Shown: in pieces, positions 1 to 4,386 of the stretch | How the letters are laid out: each line of letters starts with the position of its first letter | Numbering within the stretch: the stretch's first letter is position 1 | IMG/VR virus record: IMGVR_UViG_2711768010_000004 | Location: 1 to 4,386 of that record | Strand: one strand, 5' to 3' | DNA: 4,386 nt | Source of the DNA: a virus | Taxonomy: Duplodnaviria > Heunggongvirae > Uroviricota > Caudoviricetes | The notes under the pieces: generated by a model | Seen by the model: only the letters and a program-made list of their open reading frames with translations | What the model was told of the DNA's origin: nothing | Database searches by the model: none | Program-made: the position numbers and the translations under genes

Positions 1-60
1 CTCTCGTCTGGGGAATATCTCCCCGGCAGCCTTCAGGGAAAAATATCATCAGATGGCTGC

Positions 61-414
61 TTAAAAAAAGAACAAATGGTAGTGTCCGCTATTGCCAGTA
101 CACCTCAATTGCTCTGCGGCTTCGCTCAGAGCTGGCGTATGTTCCCGGCCTACTGATTCACACAGGTAATCAACGAAACCGGACACCAGTTTTCGTTCGC
201 GAGGCGTGATCGCCCCACCGACCGGAGTCCAGTAATCGAAACCCAGTTGCAGGAGTTTGAAAAAACGCTTGTGGAATGCGTAGTTACACACACGCTTAAA
301 GTCTGCGTGTATCCACTCACCTATTTTGATTTGATGCAGAAAATCGCAACTCTCCGGCGTCGCCGGGAGAAGTAATCCGGAAGAGGTTTGTTTGACCAGT
401 TGTATATGTGCCAT
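61..414 (-). CDS. Hypothetical prophage protein, 117 aa (MAHIQLVKQTSSG...HYHLFFF)
   Basis: Track ORF 61..456 begins at a TTG (454-456) that overlaps the upstream stop. An in-frame ATG at 412-414 is preceded by GGAGA with a 6-nt spacer, so I place the start there. No family recognised. Confidence 0.45.
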   Translation of the reverse strand: MAHIQLVKQTSSGLLLPATPESCDFLHQIKIGEWIHADFKRVCNYAFHKRFFKLLQLGFDYWTPVGGAITPRERKLVSGFVDYLCESVGREHTPALSEAAEQLRCTGNSGHYHLFFF

Positions 415-452
415 CGGCTTTCTCCGGTGGCACGGTGTTACACAGCAGGAGT

Positions 453-740
453 TCAATCCTGCTCAAGATTGTAGATGAGTTTATTCTTCAGCAAAAGCAG
501 AAAACCAGCCTTAAAACCAATCTCTTTCAAAACCCGTAATGATGTGACAAATTCGTCCTCACGCAAAATAAAACCGTCCGTCAGAAGTCCATTACAAAAA
601 TAAAATAACACAGCACCGCTCTTCCTTTGTTGAGATTGCAAACATCTAATGCGGCAATGGCTGACAATCGCTCCATTCTCAACGCGCACAGCATAGAGGC
701 CATTTTCACTAAAAATTTCACGCAATTCTTCGATTTTCAT
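453..740 (-). CDS. Hypothetical prophage protein, 95 aa (MKIEELREIFSENGLYAVRVENG...)
   Basis: ATG start at 738-740 and TGA stop at 453-455. Weak GGA-type RBS about 8 nt upstream. Sits downstream of a predicted promoter and the hok terminator. No family recognised. Confidence 0.45.
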   Translation of the reverse strand: MKIEELREIFSENGLYAVRVENGAIVSHCRIRCLQSQQRKSGAVLFYFCNGLLTDGFILREDEFVTSLRVLKEIGFKAGFLLLLKNKLIYNLEQD

Positions 741-821
741 CTTCAGAATCCTTCCAGATAAATAGCTCTCCCCTGTTCGGGGTCCATCCCTCTTCTCCCT
801 GCGCGCTACTTAAGTGAGTCG

Positions 822-849
822 ATTCTATCTGCGAAGGTGCGCGAATCAA
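822..849 (-). promoter_or_regulatory. Candidate sigma70 promoter for the two small downstream ORFs
   Basis: Minus strand reads TTGATT (plus 844-849), a 16-nt spacer, then TAGAAT (plus 822-827). It lies just 3' of the hok terminator and about 80 nt upstream of the ATG at 740. Sequence match only. Confidence 0.3.
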
Positions 850-857
850 ATTCACCG

Positions 858-914
858 GAAATAAACAACAAAAAACCCGCCGAAACGCTGAGAGATCACA
901 GCGATGGGCGGGTT
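858..914 (-). terminator. Rho-independent terminator ending the hok transcript
   Basis: Outer stem 874-881 pairs with 907-914 (AACCCGCC/GGCGGGTT). Inner stem 886-890 pairs with 899-903 (CGCTG/CAGCG). On the minus strand this is followed by TTTTGTTGTTTATTT. Confidence 0.45.
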
Positions 915-953
915 AAGTGCGGGTGCGTTGAGGATGCCTGACACATCAGAGGT

Positions 954-981
954 GGGCGGGGATGGGATCAGCTCCCCGCCC
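954..981 (-). promoter_or_regulatory. Stable stem-loop in the hok 3' UTR (possible fold-back/stability element)
   Basis: Perfect 9-bp inverted repeat GGGCGGGGA (954-962) and TCCCCGCCC (973-981) with a 10-nt loop, starting 9 nt after the hok stop. No U-run follows, so it is not itself a terminator. Hok-family mRNAs are known to carry structured 3' ends. Confidence 0.4.
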
Positions 982-989
982 GGTCACTC

Positions 990-1145
990 TTACTTCCTGG
1001 ATTCGTAGTCTACGAAGACAGCGACCTCCGTCTGGCCGGTTCGGATTCGTACCTCACAGAGGTCTTTCCTCGTTACCAGTGCCGTCACTATGACGGTTAA
1101 ACAGATGACGATCAGGGCGATTAACATCGCCTTTTGCTGCTTCAT
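990..1145 (-). CDS. hok: Hok/Gef-family small membrane toxin, 51 aa (MKQQKAMLIALIVICLTVIVTALVTRKDLCEVRIRTGQTEVAVFVDYESRK)
   Basis: ATG at 1143-1145 preceded by AAGGAG, TAA stop at 990-992. The translation is nearly identical over most of its length to chromosomal HokD/Gef as I recall them, with a hydrophobic transmembrane core and the conserved RKDLCEV motif. In the track it is fused to the upstream gene only because of read-through across the N run. Confidence 0.9.
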   Translation of the reverse strand: MKQQKAMLIALIVICLTVIVTALVTRKDLCEVRIRTGQTEVAVFVDYESRK

Positions 1146-1167
1146 AGCCTGCTTCTCCTTGCCTTTC

Positions 1168-1208
1168 NNNNNNNNNNNNNNNNNNNNNNNNNNNNNNNNN
1201 NNNNNNNN
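1168..1208. other. Assembly gap (41 N)
   Basis: Run of n characters. It hides the stop of the QueH-like gene and the hok leader region where mok and sok would lie. Confidence 0.99.
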
Positions 1209-1853
1209 GATAAGAGGGCGTCCCTGAGATTTGCGGTGTAGATTGGTATCGCGCAGAGAATACACACAGCCACAATATTCCTGCTGATAGAATTTTTCGC
1301 GCTTGCTGATTTCAATCATACGGGACGAGCCGCCCTGCTTGCGCCAGTTATAATCCCAGTACACCATGCCCGGATAATGCGCGACGGCTCGCCGCCCACA
1401 GTCGTTAACCTGCTGCATATTTTTCCAGCGTGAAATGCCCAGTGAACTGCTGATCACACTGAAACCATTTTCAGCGGCGTACAGCGCTGTCCGCTCAAAA
1501 CGCATGTCAAAACACATGGTGCAACGGATCCCTCGTTCGGGCTCCCATTCCATTCCTTTGGCTCGTTCAAACCAGTTGTCTGTGTCGTAATCAGCATCAA
1601 TAAACGGCACGCCGTGTTGTTCAGCAAAGCGAATATTCTCATCCTTACGAATTAAATACTCTTTCTGAGGATGAATGTTCGGGTTGTAGAAAAAGATGGT
1701 GTAGTCGATTCCCGAGGCCTGAAGCGCCTCCATCACCTCACCGGAACATGGAGCACAGCAAGAGTGCAGTAGTAGTTTGTTTGCCCCGTTTGGGAGCTCC
1801 AATTTGGGCCGTTTGAAATCAGCAACTGTCATAAATATGTTTATTGGGGTCAT
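1209..1853 (-). CDS. queH: QueH-like epoxyqueuosine reductase homolog (DUF208), 3' end incomplete in gap
   Basis: The translation carries the DUF208/QueH signature cysteines: HSCCAPC, RCTMC and YCGCVYS. At least 215 codons are visible, consistent with the usual QueH length. ATG at 1851-1853 (alternative ATG at 1830-1832); neither has a strong Shine-Dalgarno. Confidence 0.8.
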
Positions 1854-2000
1854 AAAAATATCAAAGAGTGTAGCATTAGAACGGGGCTATCGGAAACAGA
1901 TGTGTGACTGCTCCCCGCCCTTTCGGGTGGTCTCCTGATGATTTGAGGGTGCAGAAATCCCTCCGGTTAAGGATTAAATTTTTAACAGTGCTAAATTTAA

Positions 2001-2357
2001 TTATTCAGTTCTGGATTTTGTCGCCCTGCGTATCCGCGCTTTCGCGTTACGCTCAATCTGTATCAGCTTTTCTATATTTCTCCGCCTTTCCTGTTCCTCC
2101 TGGCGCAATAGCCTTACATCATCTGCCAGTCTGGTTTCTCTTTTTGCCACAGAGAGCATCCAGTCAAACGGCTCCACAACCGCACCGCAGATTTTACAGC
2201 GGACCTGACGCTCTTTTTCGTCAACCCGTACAGAGGCGTGATGGCAATATGGTCTTTCCGATGGCTCATAAAGAAAATTAACCTGATTACGAGGGTCATC
2301 CTCTTTTACCGGAAATAAAACGATATTGCTTAACTCATCTTCTGGTTTTATTTCCAT
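2001..2357 (-). CDS. Hypothetical Zn-ribbon protein with basic coiled-coil C-terminus, 118 aa
   Basis: ATG at 2355-2357 preceded by AAGGAGAGG, TAA stop at 2001-2003. Carries a C-H-H...C-x-x-C cluster (PYCHHASVRVDEKERQVRCKICG) and a K/R/E-rich tail. An alternative ATG at 2412-2414 abuts the upstream stop as TGAATG and would add 19 residues. Confidence 0.55.
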   Translation of the reverse strand: MEIKPEDELSNIVLFPVKEDDPRNQVNFLYEPSERPYCHHASVRVDEKERQVRCKICGAVVEPFDWMLSVAKRETRLADDVRLLRQEEQERRRNIEKLIQIERNAKARIRRATKSRTE

Positions 2358-2414
2358 GCTCCTCTCCTTTGATGCGAATGCCAGCGGTAATTGAAGCCTG
2401 ATAGCTAATTTCAT

Positions 2415-2837
2415 TCACAGTATCGCCTCCTGAAAATTACCCTGATAGAAAGCCAGTACACGCTGCATAGCTTCGCTCTTCCGGCACTCGCGACAGATTA
2501 TATTCAGGCGCCTGTCGTAGCGGCGTATTTCTCCGTCAGGTAATGACCAGATAAGGTCCGGATCAACAACAACCGGTTTCCTCACCTTTACTCTCGAGAG
2601 TTTTTTGCGGGCGCTTTGCCAGTCCTTGCGAGCCTGTTCAGACGGGAATAAGCCGTAGCCAGAATTATATACATCACCACTTGCGACCAGTTCTATGCAT
2701 AAGCGACCGACAGACGCACGACTGATACCTGTTTCATCTGACAACTGCCGAATCGTGACCCGACCGTCCTGATGCACGAGTTCCACAATTCGCGTCTTCA
2801 GTTCTTCCCGCTGTTCGGGAGTAAAAGGTTTCGCCAT
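2415..2837 (-). CDS. Winged-helix (HTH) DNA-binding protein, 140 aa, unknown function
   Basis: ATG at 2835-2837 is preceded by AGGAGG in the 14-nt gap after the DnaC-like stop. The N-terminal segment VTIRQLSDETGISRASVGRLCIELVASGDV looks like a winged-HTH. Stop at 2415-2417. Confidence 0.65.
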   Translation of the reverse strand: MAKPFTPEQREELKTRIVELVHQDGRVTIRQLSDETGISRASVGRLCIELVASGDVYNSGYGLFPSEQARKDWQSARKKLSRVKVRKPVVVDPDLIWSLPDGEIRRYDRRLNIICRECRKSEAMQRVLAFYQGNFQEAIL

Positions 2838-2851
2838 AAATCCTCCTGAAA

Positions 2852-3598
2852 CTACTTAACAACCCTCGAATGGCTAACATTCGGACGCCAGCTCTCCCAG
2901 TTAAAATTCACCCAGCGCCCGCCGTTCATGACCATGCGATCCATCACCCGCTCGCCGAGCAATGTTTTCATCACCTCATAGTTCAGGTTTGTCAGCATCC
3001 CCACGCTGCGCATCGACGCTGTCCGGCGATCAACAATCTGGTGCAGCACCACCTGCTCGTTTTTCGTCTCGCGCTGAATGCCAATTTCATCAAGAACCAG
3101 CAGATCCACTTCGCACAGCTCCCGCAAAAATTTTTCGCCTGACTGCCCGTCGTCATAGCTGGCGTGCAGGGCGCTCATAACATCAGCCACGGTAACCACA
3201 ATCACTGTCTGACCGTCTTTCAGCAGGCGATTCCCGATAGCTGCCGCTAAGTGATTCTTCCCGGTACCAGGTTTTCCGCTGAACGCAAAATTTGTACACC
3301 CGGTCATCAGTTCATCGGCGATGGATTTCGCCTGGCTTAACGCGTATCGCTGGCCGTCGTTCTGCACCTGGTAATTCGCAAACGAGCATTTACGGTGCAA
3401 CGGCTGGATGCCTGAGCGATTCAGAATTTTTTCCACCCGCAACTGGCGATTCAGGCGGTTGATCTCCTCGCTACGTTTCTGGCCTTCAGCAAGTTGCCAC
3501 TCGCGCCACTCCGCTACCGTTCTGAATGGGGCGGTTACATGTGGCGGGGTCAGTCGGCGGATGCGTTCCAGAACGCCGCCTGTCGCAATATTTTTCAT
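2852..3598 (-). CDS. DnaC-like AAA+ helicase loader / replication protein (YdaV-like), 248 aa
   Basis: Walker A (SGKPGTGKNHLA) and Walker B (LLVLDEIG) motifs are visible. I recall the sequence as very close to the Rac prophage YdaV replication protein. ATG at 3596-3598 lies 6 nt after the upstream gene's stop. Confidence 0.9.
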   Translation of the reverse strand: MKNIATGGVLERIRRLTPPHVTAPFRTVAEWREWQLAEGQKRSEEINRLNRQLRVEKILNRSGIQPLHRKCSFANYQVQNDGQRYALSQAKSIADELMTGCTNFAFSGKPGTGKNHLAAAIGNRLLKDGQTVIVVTVADVMSALHASYDDGQSGEKFLRELCEVDLLVLDEIGIQRETKNEQVVLHQIVDRRTASMRSVGMLTNLNYEVMKTLLGERVMDRMVMNGGRWVNFNWESWRPNVSHSRVVK

Positions 3599-3953
3599 GG
3601 TCCGTTACCCCCTGAAGCCTGGCGGGATCGCACTGTCCGGCAACGAGACGGTGTTAACCTGTCGGAGCAACGTCTCAGGCCGAACACCTTTCGGCGCGAA
3701 CAGGCCCTGGTATTCATTGGCGATGCTGTGTCGAATCACCTGCTCAGGTGTAAAACCCTGCTGACGGAATTTTTCCAGTTCCCGTATCGCCCCGTTAGCG
3801 CCCTGCTCCGTTCGAATCGGTTTTCGCAATGCCTGTCTGAACCGGACCCACTCATGCCAGAGTGTTTCCGGCAACCAATCGGGCAGCTCAATAGCCTCCG
3901 GCTCGAATTTTTTAGACGCTCGTTTTTGGCGAGGGGGAGATCAGTATTTAGAT

Positions 3954-3971
3954 CTTCCTCTTCCTCTTCCT
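3954..3971 (-). repeat. (CTTCCT)3 hexamer repeat encoding a six-glutamate acidic tract
   Basis: Three tandem CTTCCT units on the plus strand, read on the minus strand as GAG GAA x3 in the middle frame of the initiator gene. Confidence 0.8.
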
Positions 3972-3973
3972 CT

Positions 3974-4016
3974 GGTAACGCTTTTTGATCCGTTTGTGTA
4001 ACGCTGGCAGCGTTAC
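3974..4016. repeat. Iteron-like GTAACGCT 9-mers: one direct copy plus a 19-bp palindrome
   Basis: GGTAACGCT at 3974-3982. GTAACGCTG at 3998-4006 is mirrored by CAGCGTTAC at 4008-4016, giving the palindrome GTAACGCTG-G-CAGCGTTAC. Confidence 0.7.
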
Positions 4017-4281
4017 CTTTTCGTTTCAGTTCGCGTATTTTTGTTACTCGCTCGTTTGTAACCGCCCGTTTTTTTTAGAGCTTTTTCCGTTATGACGTTC
4101 AAAGTTAGGTAGAGAAAGCCCTCCGTCATTTTCGACCAGCCATCCAACCTGAATTAACGCATCAGCAAAACCAGACATAAAAGTGATGCGATCTATTGCA
4201 CTTTTTGTAACGCCGCGAGCGTTACAATCTGCATTACCGTCTATCATTTGTTGATCCGCCCATGCCCAGAAGCGAATAACC

Positions 4282-4386
4282 TGAGGTAGCCTGAGTTTAA
4301 CGGACACTCCTTCCTGAAATAGAATGGCATCAGAAGGAGCTAATAATGAGCAGAAAAACCCAACGTTACTCTAAAGAGTTCAAAGC
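4282..4386 (+). mobile_element. IS3-family insertion sequence, left end (IS600-like), partial
   Basis: A terminal TG at 4282 opens TGAGGTAGCCTGAGTTTAACGGACAC, an IS3-type inverted repeat. About 60 nt inside is an AGGAG RBS and an ORF opening MSRKTQRYSKEFK, which I recall as the IS600 OrfA N-terminus. The rest of the element is outside the window. Confidence 0.55.
4346..4386 (+). CDS. IS3-family transposase OrfA, N-terminal 13 codons only
   Basis: ATG at 4346 with AGGAG 7 nt upstream. The RYSKEFK motif is typical of the IS3-family OrfA HTH region. Truncated by the window edge. Confidence 0.5.
   Translation, partial: MSRKTQRYSKEFK

Follow-up and report, generated by a model that had tools for sequence, protein, structure and literature searches.

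The Ren protein of phage lambda counteracts Rex exclusion and lets lambda escape from it, and its gene follows the replication genes in the order O-P-ren-ninB. Protein family PHROG 1621, to which PHROGs 8538 and 4865 are related, has named members in phages ArgO145 (gp17), 933W (ST933Wp77, also L0139), Tyrion (gp50) and Serratia phage Parlo (gp33), and every annotated member is a 'hypothetical protein', so that the family offers no function for comparison. Here we describe two small genes, one related to ren and one belonging to PHROG 1621, in a 4,386-nt stretch of Caudoviricetes DNA (positions 1 to 4,386 of IMG/VR record IMGVR_UViG_2711768010_000004), hereafter called the window. All genes of the window lie on the minus strand. 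A first-pass annotation, made by a model from the DNA letters, had reported two tightly spaced small genes behind a DnaC-like gene, and both open reading frames (ORFs) were found where it had placed them. With the spacer between them they are as follows.

2415-2837, minus strand: gene 1, Ren-like protein of 140 amino acids (DUF977, 'LygF'), assigned by DUF977 and phrog_142
2358-2414, minus strand: spacer of 57 nt between gene 1 and gene 2, assigned by leader conservation over 90 contexts
2001-2357, minus strand: gene 2, protein of 118 amino acids, PHROG 1621, assigned by phrog_1621 (E = 5e-56)

With moderate confidence we favour the explanation that these are two independent accessory genes, gene 1 being ren and gene 2 a mobile cassette that encodes a putative zinc/coiled-coil adaptor. 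Judged by its sequence, gene 1 is the ren gene of this prophage and a homologue of lambda Ren. It begins 14 nt past the stop codon of the DnaC-like gene and matched Pfam DUF977 (PF06163) over the entire model (1-134 of 134), with E = 1e-33 and 116.5 bits against a gathering cut-off of 22.1. The winged helix-turn-helix (wHTH) that had been read from the sequence at first pass was recovered both by Pfam, with HTH_24 (26.0 bits, cut-off 21.9) and HTH_IclR (23.1, cut-off 22), and by an AlphaFold2 model built with database homologues. In this model residues 7-63 form three helices and a beta wing with a predicted local distance difference test (pLDDT) score above 90, followed by a helix at 67-82 and a poorly modelled C-terminus. 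Residues 66-92 correspond to a basic helix and linker with a net charge of +6, and the C-terminus carries the Ren motif N-I-I-C-R-E-C-R-K-S-E-A-M-Q-R-V-L-A-F-Y. The best PHROG of gene 1 was phrog_142, 'Ren-like exclusion protein' (E = 2.7e-44, residues 1-139), which was also the best PHROG of lambda Ren (E = 1.6e-41). When a profile of ten Ren-like alleles was compared with lambda Ren by hhalign, the score was 95.5% (E = 1.4e-8) over 90 columns that include the wHTH and the C-terminal motif, and BLASTP of the C-terminal motifs of gene 1 (NIICRECRKSEAMQRVLAFY) and lambda Ren (NLVFKECRQSAAMKRVLAVY) gave E = 3e-7.

Gene 1 and lambda ren occupy the same place in the early rightward operon, immediately behind the replication genes, the order in the window being O-like, DnaC-like, gene 1. 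The N-terminal wHTH and the C-terminal ECRxSxAMxRVLAxY are also common to both proteins. They differ in length, 140 amino acids for gene 1 and 96 for Ren, because a basic helix and linker of about 45 residues is inserted in gene 1 between the HTH and the C-terminal motif. A further difference is the sharp divergence of the HTH recognition helix among gene 1 alleles. The first-pass annotation had recognised neither gene as a known lambdoid function. Since gene 1 is a Ren homologue in the ren position, this was wrong for gene 1, whereas the same annotation was right about the kind of locus, a place for ren/nin-type accessory genes; for gene 2, which belongs to an uncharacterised family, the statement stood. 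By homology gene 1 is expected to act with phage replication proteins, and by analogy with Ren it may allow phage growth in cells with a Rex-type exclusion system. The superinfection-exclusion or anti-defence role suggested at first pass is thus plausible for gene 1 only, and for gene 2 it was left without support, as no defence-protein model in PADLOC-DB matched it.

The name 'LygF' is given to the gene 1 protein in some phage and Salmonella annotations; we take it to be a Salmonella locus label (Sdf region) that implies no function. YdaW of the E. coli K-12 Rac prophage, a candidate orthologue of gene 1, was rejected, as BLASTP gave E = 0.054 over 37 HTH residues only. Gene 2 likewise gave no alignment with YdaW, the protein encoded after ydaV in Rac. 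The PDB sequence search with gene 1 returned only generic wHTH and Z-alpha matches (E about 0.005), and PADLOC-DB only weak generic wHTH matches (E at least 0.0017). The recognition helix of the Ren-like wHTH (window 2680-2740, residues about 33-53) was observed to vary sharply, for example SRASVGRLCIELV, TRYLMSVLARELV, GWHSVRRCLVDVL and SKTAIRRLSGALA, in loci L020, L029, L034, L082, L083, L133, L143 and L165, with the C-terminal two thirds conserved. By megablast the Ren-like C-terminal part was present in 3,617 E. coli genomes and the full allele in only 87. This variation suggests either diversifying selection or a module-specific recognition of a partner or of DNA.

Gene 2 had been given two possible starts at first pass, and both are present in the sequence. 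The long form of the ORF spans 2001-2414 (137 amino acids) and begins at the stop/start junction TGAATG (2412-2417) shared with gene 1. An internal ATG at 2357-2355 yields 118 amino acids and is preceded by a strong Shine-Dalgarno sequence, AAAGGAGAGGAG at 2359-2370, the AAGGAG core of which lies 6 nt before the ATG. Several results favour the internal start. The phrog_1621 profile (positions 1-120 of 134) begins at M20 of the long ORF, the NCBI PGAP annotation of a near-identical record selects the 357-nt form, and homologues from Klebsiella, Kluyvera, Serratia, Erwinia, Salmonella and others begin at the equivalent methionine with M-T-T-E-T-E. In all 90 contexts examined the 29 nt before the 2357 ATG (2358-2386, including the Shine-Dalgarno sequence) were near-constant, whereas the sequence further upstream (2387-2414 in the window) varied with genomic context. 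The ATG at 2414 (2412-2414) was often replaced in these contexts by GTG or GTA, or in-frame stop codons intervened. On this sequence evidence the start of gene 2 is the ATG at 2357 and not that at 2414, the product has 118 amino acids, and positions 2358-2414 are therefore a non-coding intergenic spacer. Together with this 29-nt leader and its own strong ribosome-binding site, gene 2 forms a mobile cassette that is complete in itself.

The independence of the two genes was evident from 80 IMG/VR loci with a gene 2 at least 97% identical to that of the window, which were sorted by the nearest Ren-like gene as listed here.

Ren-like gene directly upstream of gene 2, with the same 57-nt spacer: 42 of 80 loci
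Ren-like gene upstream, 0.5-1.2 kb apart: 24 of 80 loci
Ren-like gene upstream, more than 1.2 kb apart: 3 of 80 loci
No Ren-like gene found upstream: 11 of 80 loci, 2 of these with less than 1 kb of upstream sequence

Identity to the window in these loci was 53-100% for the Ren-like protein in contrast to 97-100% for gene 2, which places a boundary of recombination between the two genes, some 29 nt ahead of the start of gene 2. In the 27 loci where the two are separated, the inserted genes were DUF4406-like and ead/Ea22-like, with the last codons of the Ea22-like gene overlapping the gene 2 start. Ren-like DNA was present in about twice as many E. coli genomes (3,617) as gene 2 (1,679). The linkage of the genes as a pair, as assumed at first pass, did not hold up, given these counts and the presence of gene 2 elsewhere in other phages; the arrangement is frequent but not obligatory, and the two are separate accessory genes. 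We also observed in-frame fusions of gene 2 to an Ea22-like N-terminus, DUF1133, DUF977 and DUF4406 in database proteins P0007, P0042, P0121, P0022, P0041 and P0098. In those with Ea22 (P0007, P0042 and P0121) the two parts meet at a common 'EIKP', an indication that recombination took place at short repeats bordering the cassette.

The gene 2 protein is built of three parts, given here with their window coordinates and with residues numbered in the 118-amino-acid form.

2310-2336, minus strand: short motif E-L-x-N-[VI]-[VIL]-x-F-P, residues 8-16 (conservation, pLDDT, charge)
2187-2246, minus strand: putative zinc knuckle C38-x-H40 ... C54-x-x-C57 on a beta-hairpin, residues 38-57 (conservation and model)
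2007-2171, minus strand: single long helix, residues 63-117 (AlphaFold2 model, conservation)

The N-terminal residues 1-35 are acidic (net -5) and predicted to be disordered, with pLDDT below 50. Within them E8, F15 and P16 of the short motif were invariant and L9 and N11 nearly so among 20 enterobacterial homologues, and the motif was recognisable in distant relatives. The CHH...CxxC cluster and basic coiled-coil tail described at first pass were both recovered. The cluster reads C38-H39-H40 ... C54-x-x-C57, and among 36 relatives with 26-71% identity to the window protein C38, C54 and C57 were invariant and H40 nearly so, H39 being the one residue of the cluster that is not conserved. Strands were modelled at 43-46 and 51-54. 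In the helix the mean pLDDT of 10-residue blocks was 78-97, and above 90 from residue 81 on. Its last third, K-L-I-Q-I-E-R-N-A-K-A-R-I-R-R, is basic and almost invariant. Invariant residues extended from L84 to R110 in the 20 enterobacterial homologues, E102, N104 and R108 were kept at 90% or more across the wider family, and residues 91-118 have a net charge of +8.

When the codons of 34 distinct homologues were aligned across genera, the invariant residues L98 and R108 used 6 codons each, R92 used 5 and A105 used 4. This free synonymous variation at invariant residues means that the conservation of the helix reflects selection on the protein and not on a DNA or RNA element. An embedded element of that kind was ruled out by the synonymous variation together with the absence of Rfam matches. 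By this codon-level evidence gene 2 is a real protein-coding gene under strong purifying selection. A 125-amino-acid ORF on the plus strand (1904-2281) overlaps gene 2 in antisense; it is most likely a shadow ORF, the codon-level conservation backing the minus-strand frame.

Gene 2 was found to be a full-length member of PHROG 1621 with weaker matches to PHROGs 8538 and 4865, all three of 'unknown function'. By hhalign it matched the 933W, Tyrion and Parlo proteins with 99.5-99.9%, and these have the CxH...CxxC knuckle and the ERNAKxR helix in common with it. The signature of the family consists of C-x-H ... C-x-x-C, D-P-F-D and a long helix ending in L-K-R-x-E-R-N-A-K-x-R-I-R, with N-[VI]-[VIL]-x-F-P near the N-terminus. 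A profile search of 1.8 billion cluster representatives gave 1,470 gene 2 clusters (50% identity) at E up to 0.001, which span very different GC contents and include forms of 160-196 amino acids with a composition of the high-GC type. Among 5,426 complete E. coli genomes 1,679 (31%) carry gene 2, in up to 5 copies per genome and always as a 'hypothetical protein'. It is present in Shiga toxin (Stx) 2a phages such as ArgO145, while 933W (ST933Wp77/L0139), VT2-Sakai and numerous further Stx phages carry a distant paralogue. In some E. coli prophages a second distant paralogue of 131 amino acids, beginning MKNEVDNVITLVQP, with 25-29% identity, was seen 0.6-2.5 kb downstream of the first (L043 4973-5302, L044 6793-7125 and L065 5059-5304; also L125, L127 and L128), several of them just upstream of a hok gene. 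Two near-identical copies of gene 2 were seen in L021, L032 and L066.

The profile and structure searches foreseen at first pass led to lambda Ren for gene 1 (hhalign) and to generic zinc-ribbon and helix matches only for gene 2 (Foldseek, hhalign). The only Pfam signal of any weight for gene 2 was the TFIIB zinc ribbon (PF08271), which at 21.1-21.5 bits stayed below the cut-off of 29, and the best Foldseek E-values were 0.35 in PDB (the TFIIB N-terminal domain) and 0.21 in BFVD. Gene 2 resembles TFIIB-type zinc ribbons and small zinc-knuckle proteins (lambda NinF, the DksA/TraR-like Orf73) in its two-strand knuckle with a CxxC turn, although the matches are non-significant. It differs from the TFIIB type in its putative ligands, Cys-His-Cys-Cys instead of four Cys, and from all of them in the 55-residue helix after the knuckle. 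The gene 2 profile reached 66% with lambda NinF over 21 columns at the zinc knuckle, and was negative with all other lambda nin and exo-xis proteins (hhalign). Candidate relatives that were tried and rejected include the DksA/TraR family (no Pfam match at E up to 0.1; hhalign with the 933W DksA-like protein 5-11% over 11 columns) and lambda Ea8.5 (hhalign 7%). A literature search found nothing on the gene 1 or the gene 2 protein; the name 'LygF' came up in two genome announcements for Salmonella.

Under the explanation we favour, both genes would belong to the early rightward operon and be read through from the replication genes, and the gene 2 cassette would recombine into several positions of phage early regions. 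Its product would be a zinc-stabilised coiled-coil adaptor, likely dimeric; pairing through the helix is suggested because V81, L84, I95, L98, A105, I109 and A112 show a heptad-like spacing in our reading of the alignment. The invariant basic helix would bind a target that is itself conserved, either a nucleic acid or a protein, and a second partner would be docked by the N-terminal peptide. The time of action would be towards the end of the early phase, near the turn to late gene expression or packaging. Relatives of gene 2 recur in three positions: overlapping the end of ead/Ea22-like genes, directly before Q antiterminators and, among long forms, ahead of the large terminase. The common thread of the gene 2 relatives is that of an early-operon gene which is often the last before late functions. 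In Kluyvera, Klebsiella, Erwinia, Pantoea, Photorhabdus, Phytobacter and Serratia relatives were found as the last gene of the nin region, directly before Q. The distinct downstream neighbours of the relatives (n=27, not all of them mutually independent) included Q in 17 cases, of three unrelated Pfam families (PF06323, PF03589 and PF06530), NinB in 3, DUF1133 in 1 and Hok in 1.

A number of points weigh against this explanation. Lambda Ren itself gave no match to the DUF977 model at E up to 1, and the Ren kinship of gene 1 therefore rests on PHROG membership and the profile comparison; moreover, we know of no molecular mechanism described for Ren. For gene 2, no Pfam, NCBIfam or PADLOC family covers the protein, the PDB sequence search gave no relative, and nothing beyond zinc ribbons of a generic kind and long helices came out of the fold searches. 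The model of gene 2 is that of a monomer, with a predicted template modelling (pTM) score of 0.38 and the N-terminal 30 residues unmodelled, and we infer its dimerisation, zinc binding and any binding target. Both proteins are described here on the basis of sequence and structure models. Furthermore, gene 2 of the window lies right after ren and far from Q, so that the theme of an early-late boundary fails here, and other relatives lie beside SSB and DnaB or among early genes.

An alternative is that gene 2 acts as the partner of an ead/Ea22-like coiled-coil early protein and that the window copy is a leftover whose partner gene has been lost. In ArgO145, 933W, Enterobacter phage Tyrion (33% identity only) and E. 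coli prophages, gene 2 or its relative overlaps the end of an ead/Ea22-like gene, with its start within the last 10-80 nt or so, and the 29-nt leader doubles as the 3' end of the Ea22-like ORF in another reading frame. The in-frame Ea22 fusions fit the same idea, and ea22 has been reported to favour lysogeny (PMC7093339, PMC10834534). However, the window has no Ea22-like gene, most relatives outside E. coli have no Ea22-like neighbour, and accidental recombination at the 'EIKP' codons common to both could have produced the fusions. Membership of gene 2 in the Ead/Ea22 family was also rejected, as hhalign gave 0.2-1.9% with lambda Ea22 and 0.1-0.3% with that of 933W, and the link is one of adjacency and fusion proteins only. 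We regard this partnership as unlikely.

Among distant relatives, we read the contexts of nine long-form proteins (162-196 amino acids) on metagenomic phage contigs of high GC content and that of a short relative of 114 amino acids (P0398). For six of the nine long forms, between 0 and 4 small genes separate the relative from the large terminase gene downstream, or from a large unrecognised ORF that takes its place; in two of these cases the stop and start codons overlap. The other three lie before an HNH endonuclease gene, at an operon end beside an integrase gene, and beside SSB and DnaB; P0398 lies among early genes. Long forms of 175-196 amino acids were noted right or almost right before the large terminase in L189 (6001-6561), L186/L187 (6001-6561), L191 (4001-4540), L195 (4001-4528) and L192 (4001-4540). 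The place directly upstream of the large terminase normally encodes the small terminase. In the broadest reading, the family could be a new and widespread class of phage factors at the early/late boundary, the long forms being a zinc-ribbon small terminase or a terminase partner. The short forms, which do not have the C-terminal extension, would then regulate or compete, applying the same invariant basic helix to DNA, to RNA or to a conserved partner such as an Ea22-like protein or the late-gene machinery. We consider this quite improbable as a whole.

In a narrower form, the gene 2 family would be tied to packaging or the late switch, with the long forms as an unrecognised small terminase or accessory and the short enterobacterial form as a truncated derivative that uses the same type of DNA or partner. 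Besides the long forms with codons overlapping those of the large terminase, or separated from it by 1-4 small genes, the layout of the protein is in line with this reading: an N-terminal domain of nucleic-acid-binding type, a long oligomerising helix and, in the long forms only, a C-terminal extension. The layout of small terminases is in general similar. Enterobacterial forms, too, often border on the late region, lying immediately ahead of Q. On the other hand, none of 36 family members matched any terminase family in Pfam or PHROGs, by which a known small-terminase family was rejected, and where lambdoid phages carry gene 2, a small terminase of their own, such as Terminase_2, is encoded at another place. 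Adjacency to the large terminase holds only for the long-form distant relatives and not for gene 2 of the window, which lies in the replication/nin region between the Ren-like gene and QueH. Some relatives belong to replication modules, and being the last early gene explains the position beside the terminase equally well. We therefore judge a packaging role to be very doubtful. A gene for a wHTH of the LexA_DNA_bind type was often noted 1-2 genes upstream of the long forms; a deep pairing of wHTH genes with gene 2 was rejected, as these proteins are unrelated to Ren (hhalign 2-3%).

Equally doubtful is the view that superinfection exclusion or anti-defence is the task of one dedicated module made up of the wHTH gene and the zinc-ribbon gene. 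The constant 57-nt spacer in the 42 loci with adjacent genes speaks for it, as do the position at a classic accessory-gene site, the name 'exclusion protein' that PHROGs gives to the Ren family and, in Salmonella, a DUF977 gene 2.2 kb upstream of a 56%-identical gene 2. Opposed to it are the contrast in identity between the two proteins within the same loci, the DUF4406-like and Ea22-like genes that intervene in 27 of them, and the twofold excess of Ren-like DNA in E. coli genomes. In other genera gene 2 lies between NinG, RusA or DUF1364 and Q with no Ren gene adjacent, and neither protein had a meaningful PADLOC match. Finally, that gene 2 is a spurious ORF, or conserved as a DNA or RNA element, as its shortness and the antisense ORF of similar length might suggest, is effectively refuted by synonymous sites that vary freely under invariant amino acids, by the 1,470 homologous clusters of very different GC content and by the lack of any Rfam match.

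The remaining features of the window surround the two genes as follows.

About 3605-4307, minus strand: O-like replication initiator, disrupted (family searches of window ORFs)
2852-3598, minus strand: DnaC-like helicase loader of the ydaV type, last gene of the replication module (NCBIfam PRK12377, E = 8e-154; phrog_50, E = 1e-82; Pfam IstB_IS21)
1209-1853, minus strand: QueH, epoxyqueuosine reductase, a cargo gene and the downstream neighbour of gene 2 (Pfam QueH, E = 2e-65)
990-1145, minus strand: hokD, downstream of QueH (family searches of window ORFs)
453-740, minus strand: phrog_340 ORF (family searches of window ORFs)
61-414, minus strand: DUF1367/NinB-like gene, truncated (family searches of window ORFs)

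A prophage of E. coli FDAARGOS_943 was 99.7% identical to a 1,041-nt query over both genes (window 1860-2900). The same genes are labelled there as ydaV, DUF977 family protein, hypothetical protein (357 nt), QueH and hokD, and the counterpart adjoins a cI/cro-type switch and Rac-like early genes. On both sides (1-107 and 4282-4386) the window terminates in IS600 ends, 100% identical to those of copies annotated in the same E. coli strain. Two IS600 elements thus flank a 4.2-kb prophage fragment, one truncating the DUF1367/NinB-like gene and the other the O-like replication gene. From this match and the IS600 at both ends it follows that the window is one piece of a lambdoid prophage in decay, of the E. 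coli/Shigella type. QueH is not a regular companion of gene 2, being found downstream of it in only 12 of the 80 related loci.

The O-like initiator appears as two ORFs (3605-3874 and 4044-4307), the intact gene in FDAARGOS_943 having 783 nt. In the window, a run of T8 replaces the T6 of that gene, and a repeated GGGGGAGATCAGTATTTAGATC-type stretch shows small indels (about 3935-3950 and 4067-4074); the split is due either to pseudogenisation or to an error in sequencing. A run of 39 N lies at 1170-1208 between QueH and hokD, where a related record has about 227 nt, and because of this run the two genes appear as one ORF of 287 amino acids (990-1853) in the mechanical ORF list. Rfam gave no family match anywhere in the window, and no Sok-type RNA was detected by it. 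Gene 1 and gene 2 are both intact, and a simple consensus scan of positions 1700-3000 predicted no minus-strand promoter or terminator, in line with their co-transcription.

Taken together, the region is an ordinary lambdoid accessory region with one well-defined orphan family of interest. The novelty of gene 1 is limited to the recognition that DUF977/'LygF' proteins are long Ren homologues, a link that can be used in annotation. The gene 2 family reaches further, as about a third of complete E. coli genomes carry it and it also occurs in the Shiga-toxin phages 933W, ArgO145 and Sakai VT2 and in phages of distant high-GC hosts. Conserved and widespread as it is, the family is missing from Pfam, and none of its members has a solved structure or has been characterised. 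The four putative zinc ligands, the invariant helix and the N-terminal peptide motif make the protein easy to probe by mutation. Its protein probably touches a process that is central to these phages, be it the lysis-lysogeny decision, late gene expression, replication or packaging.

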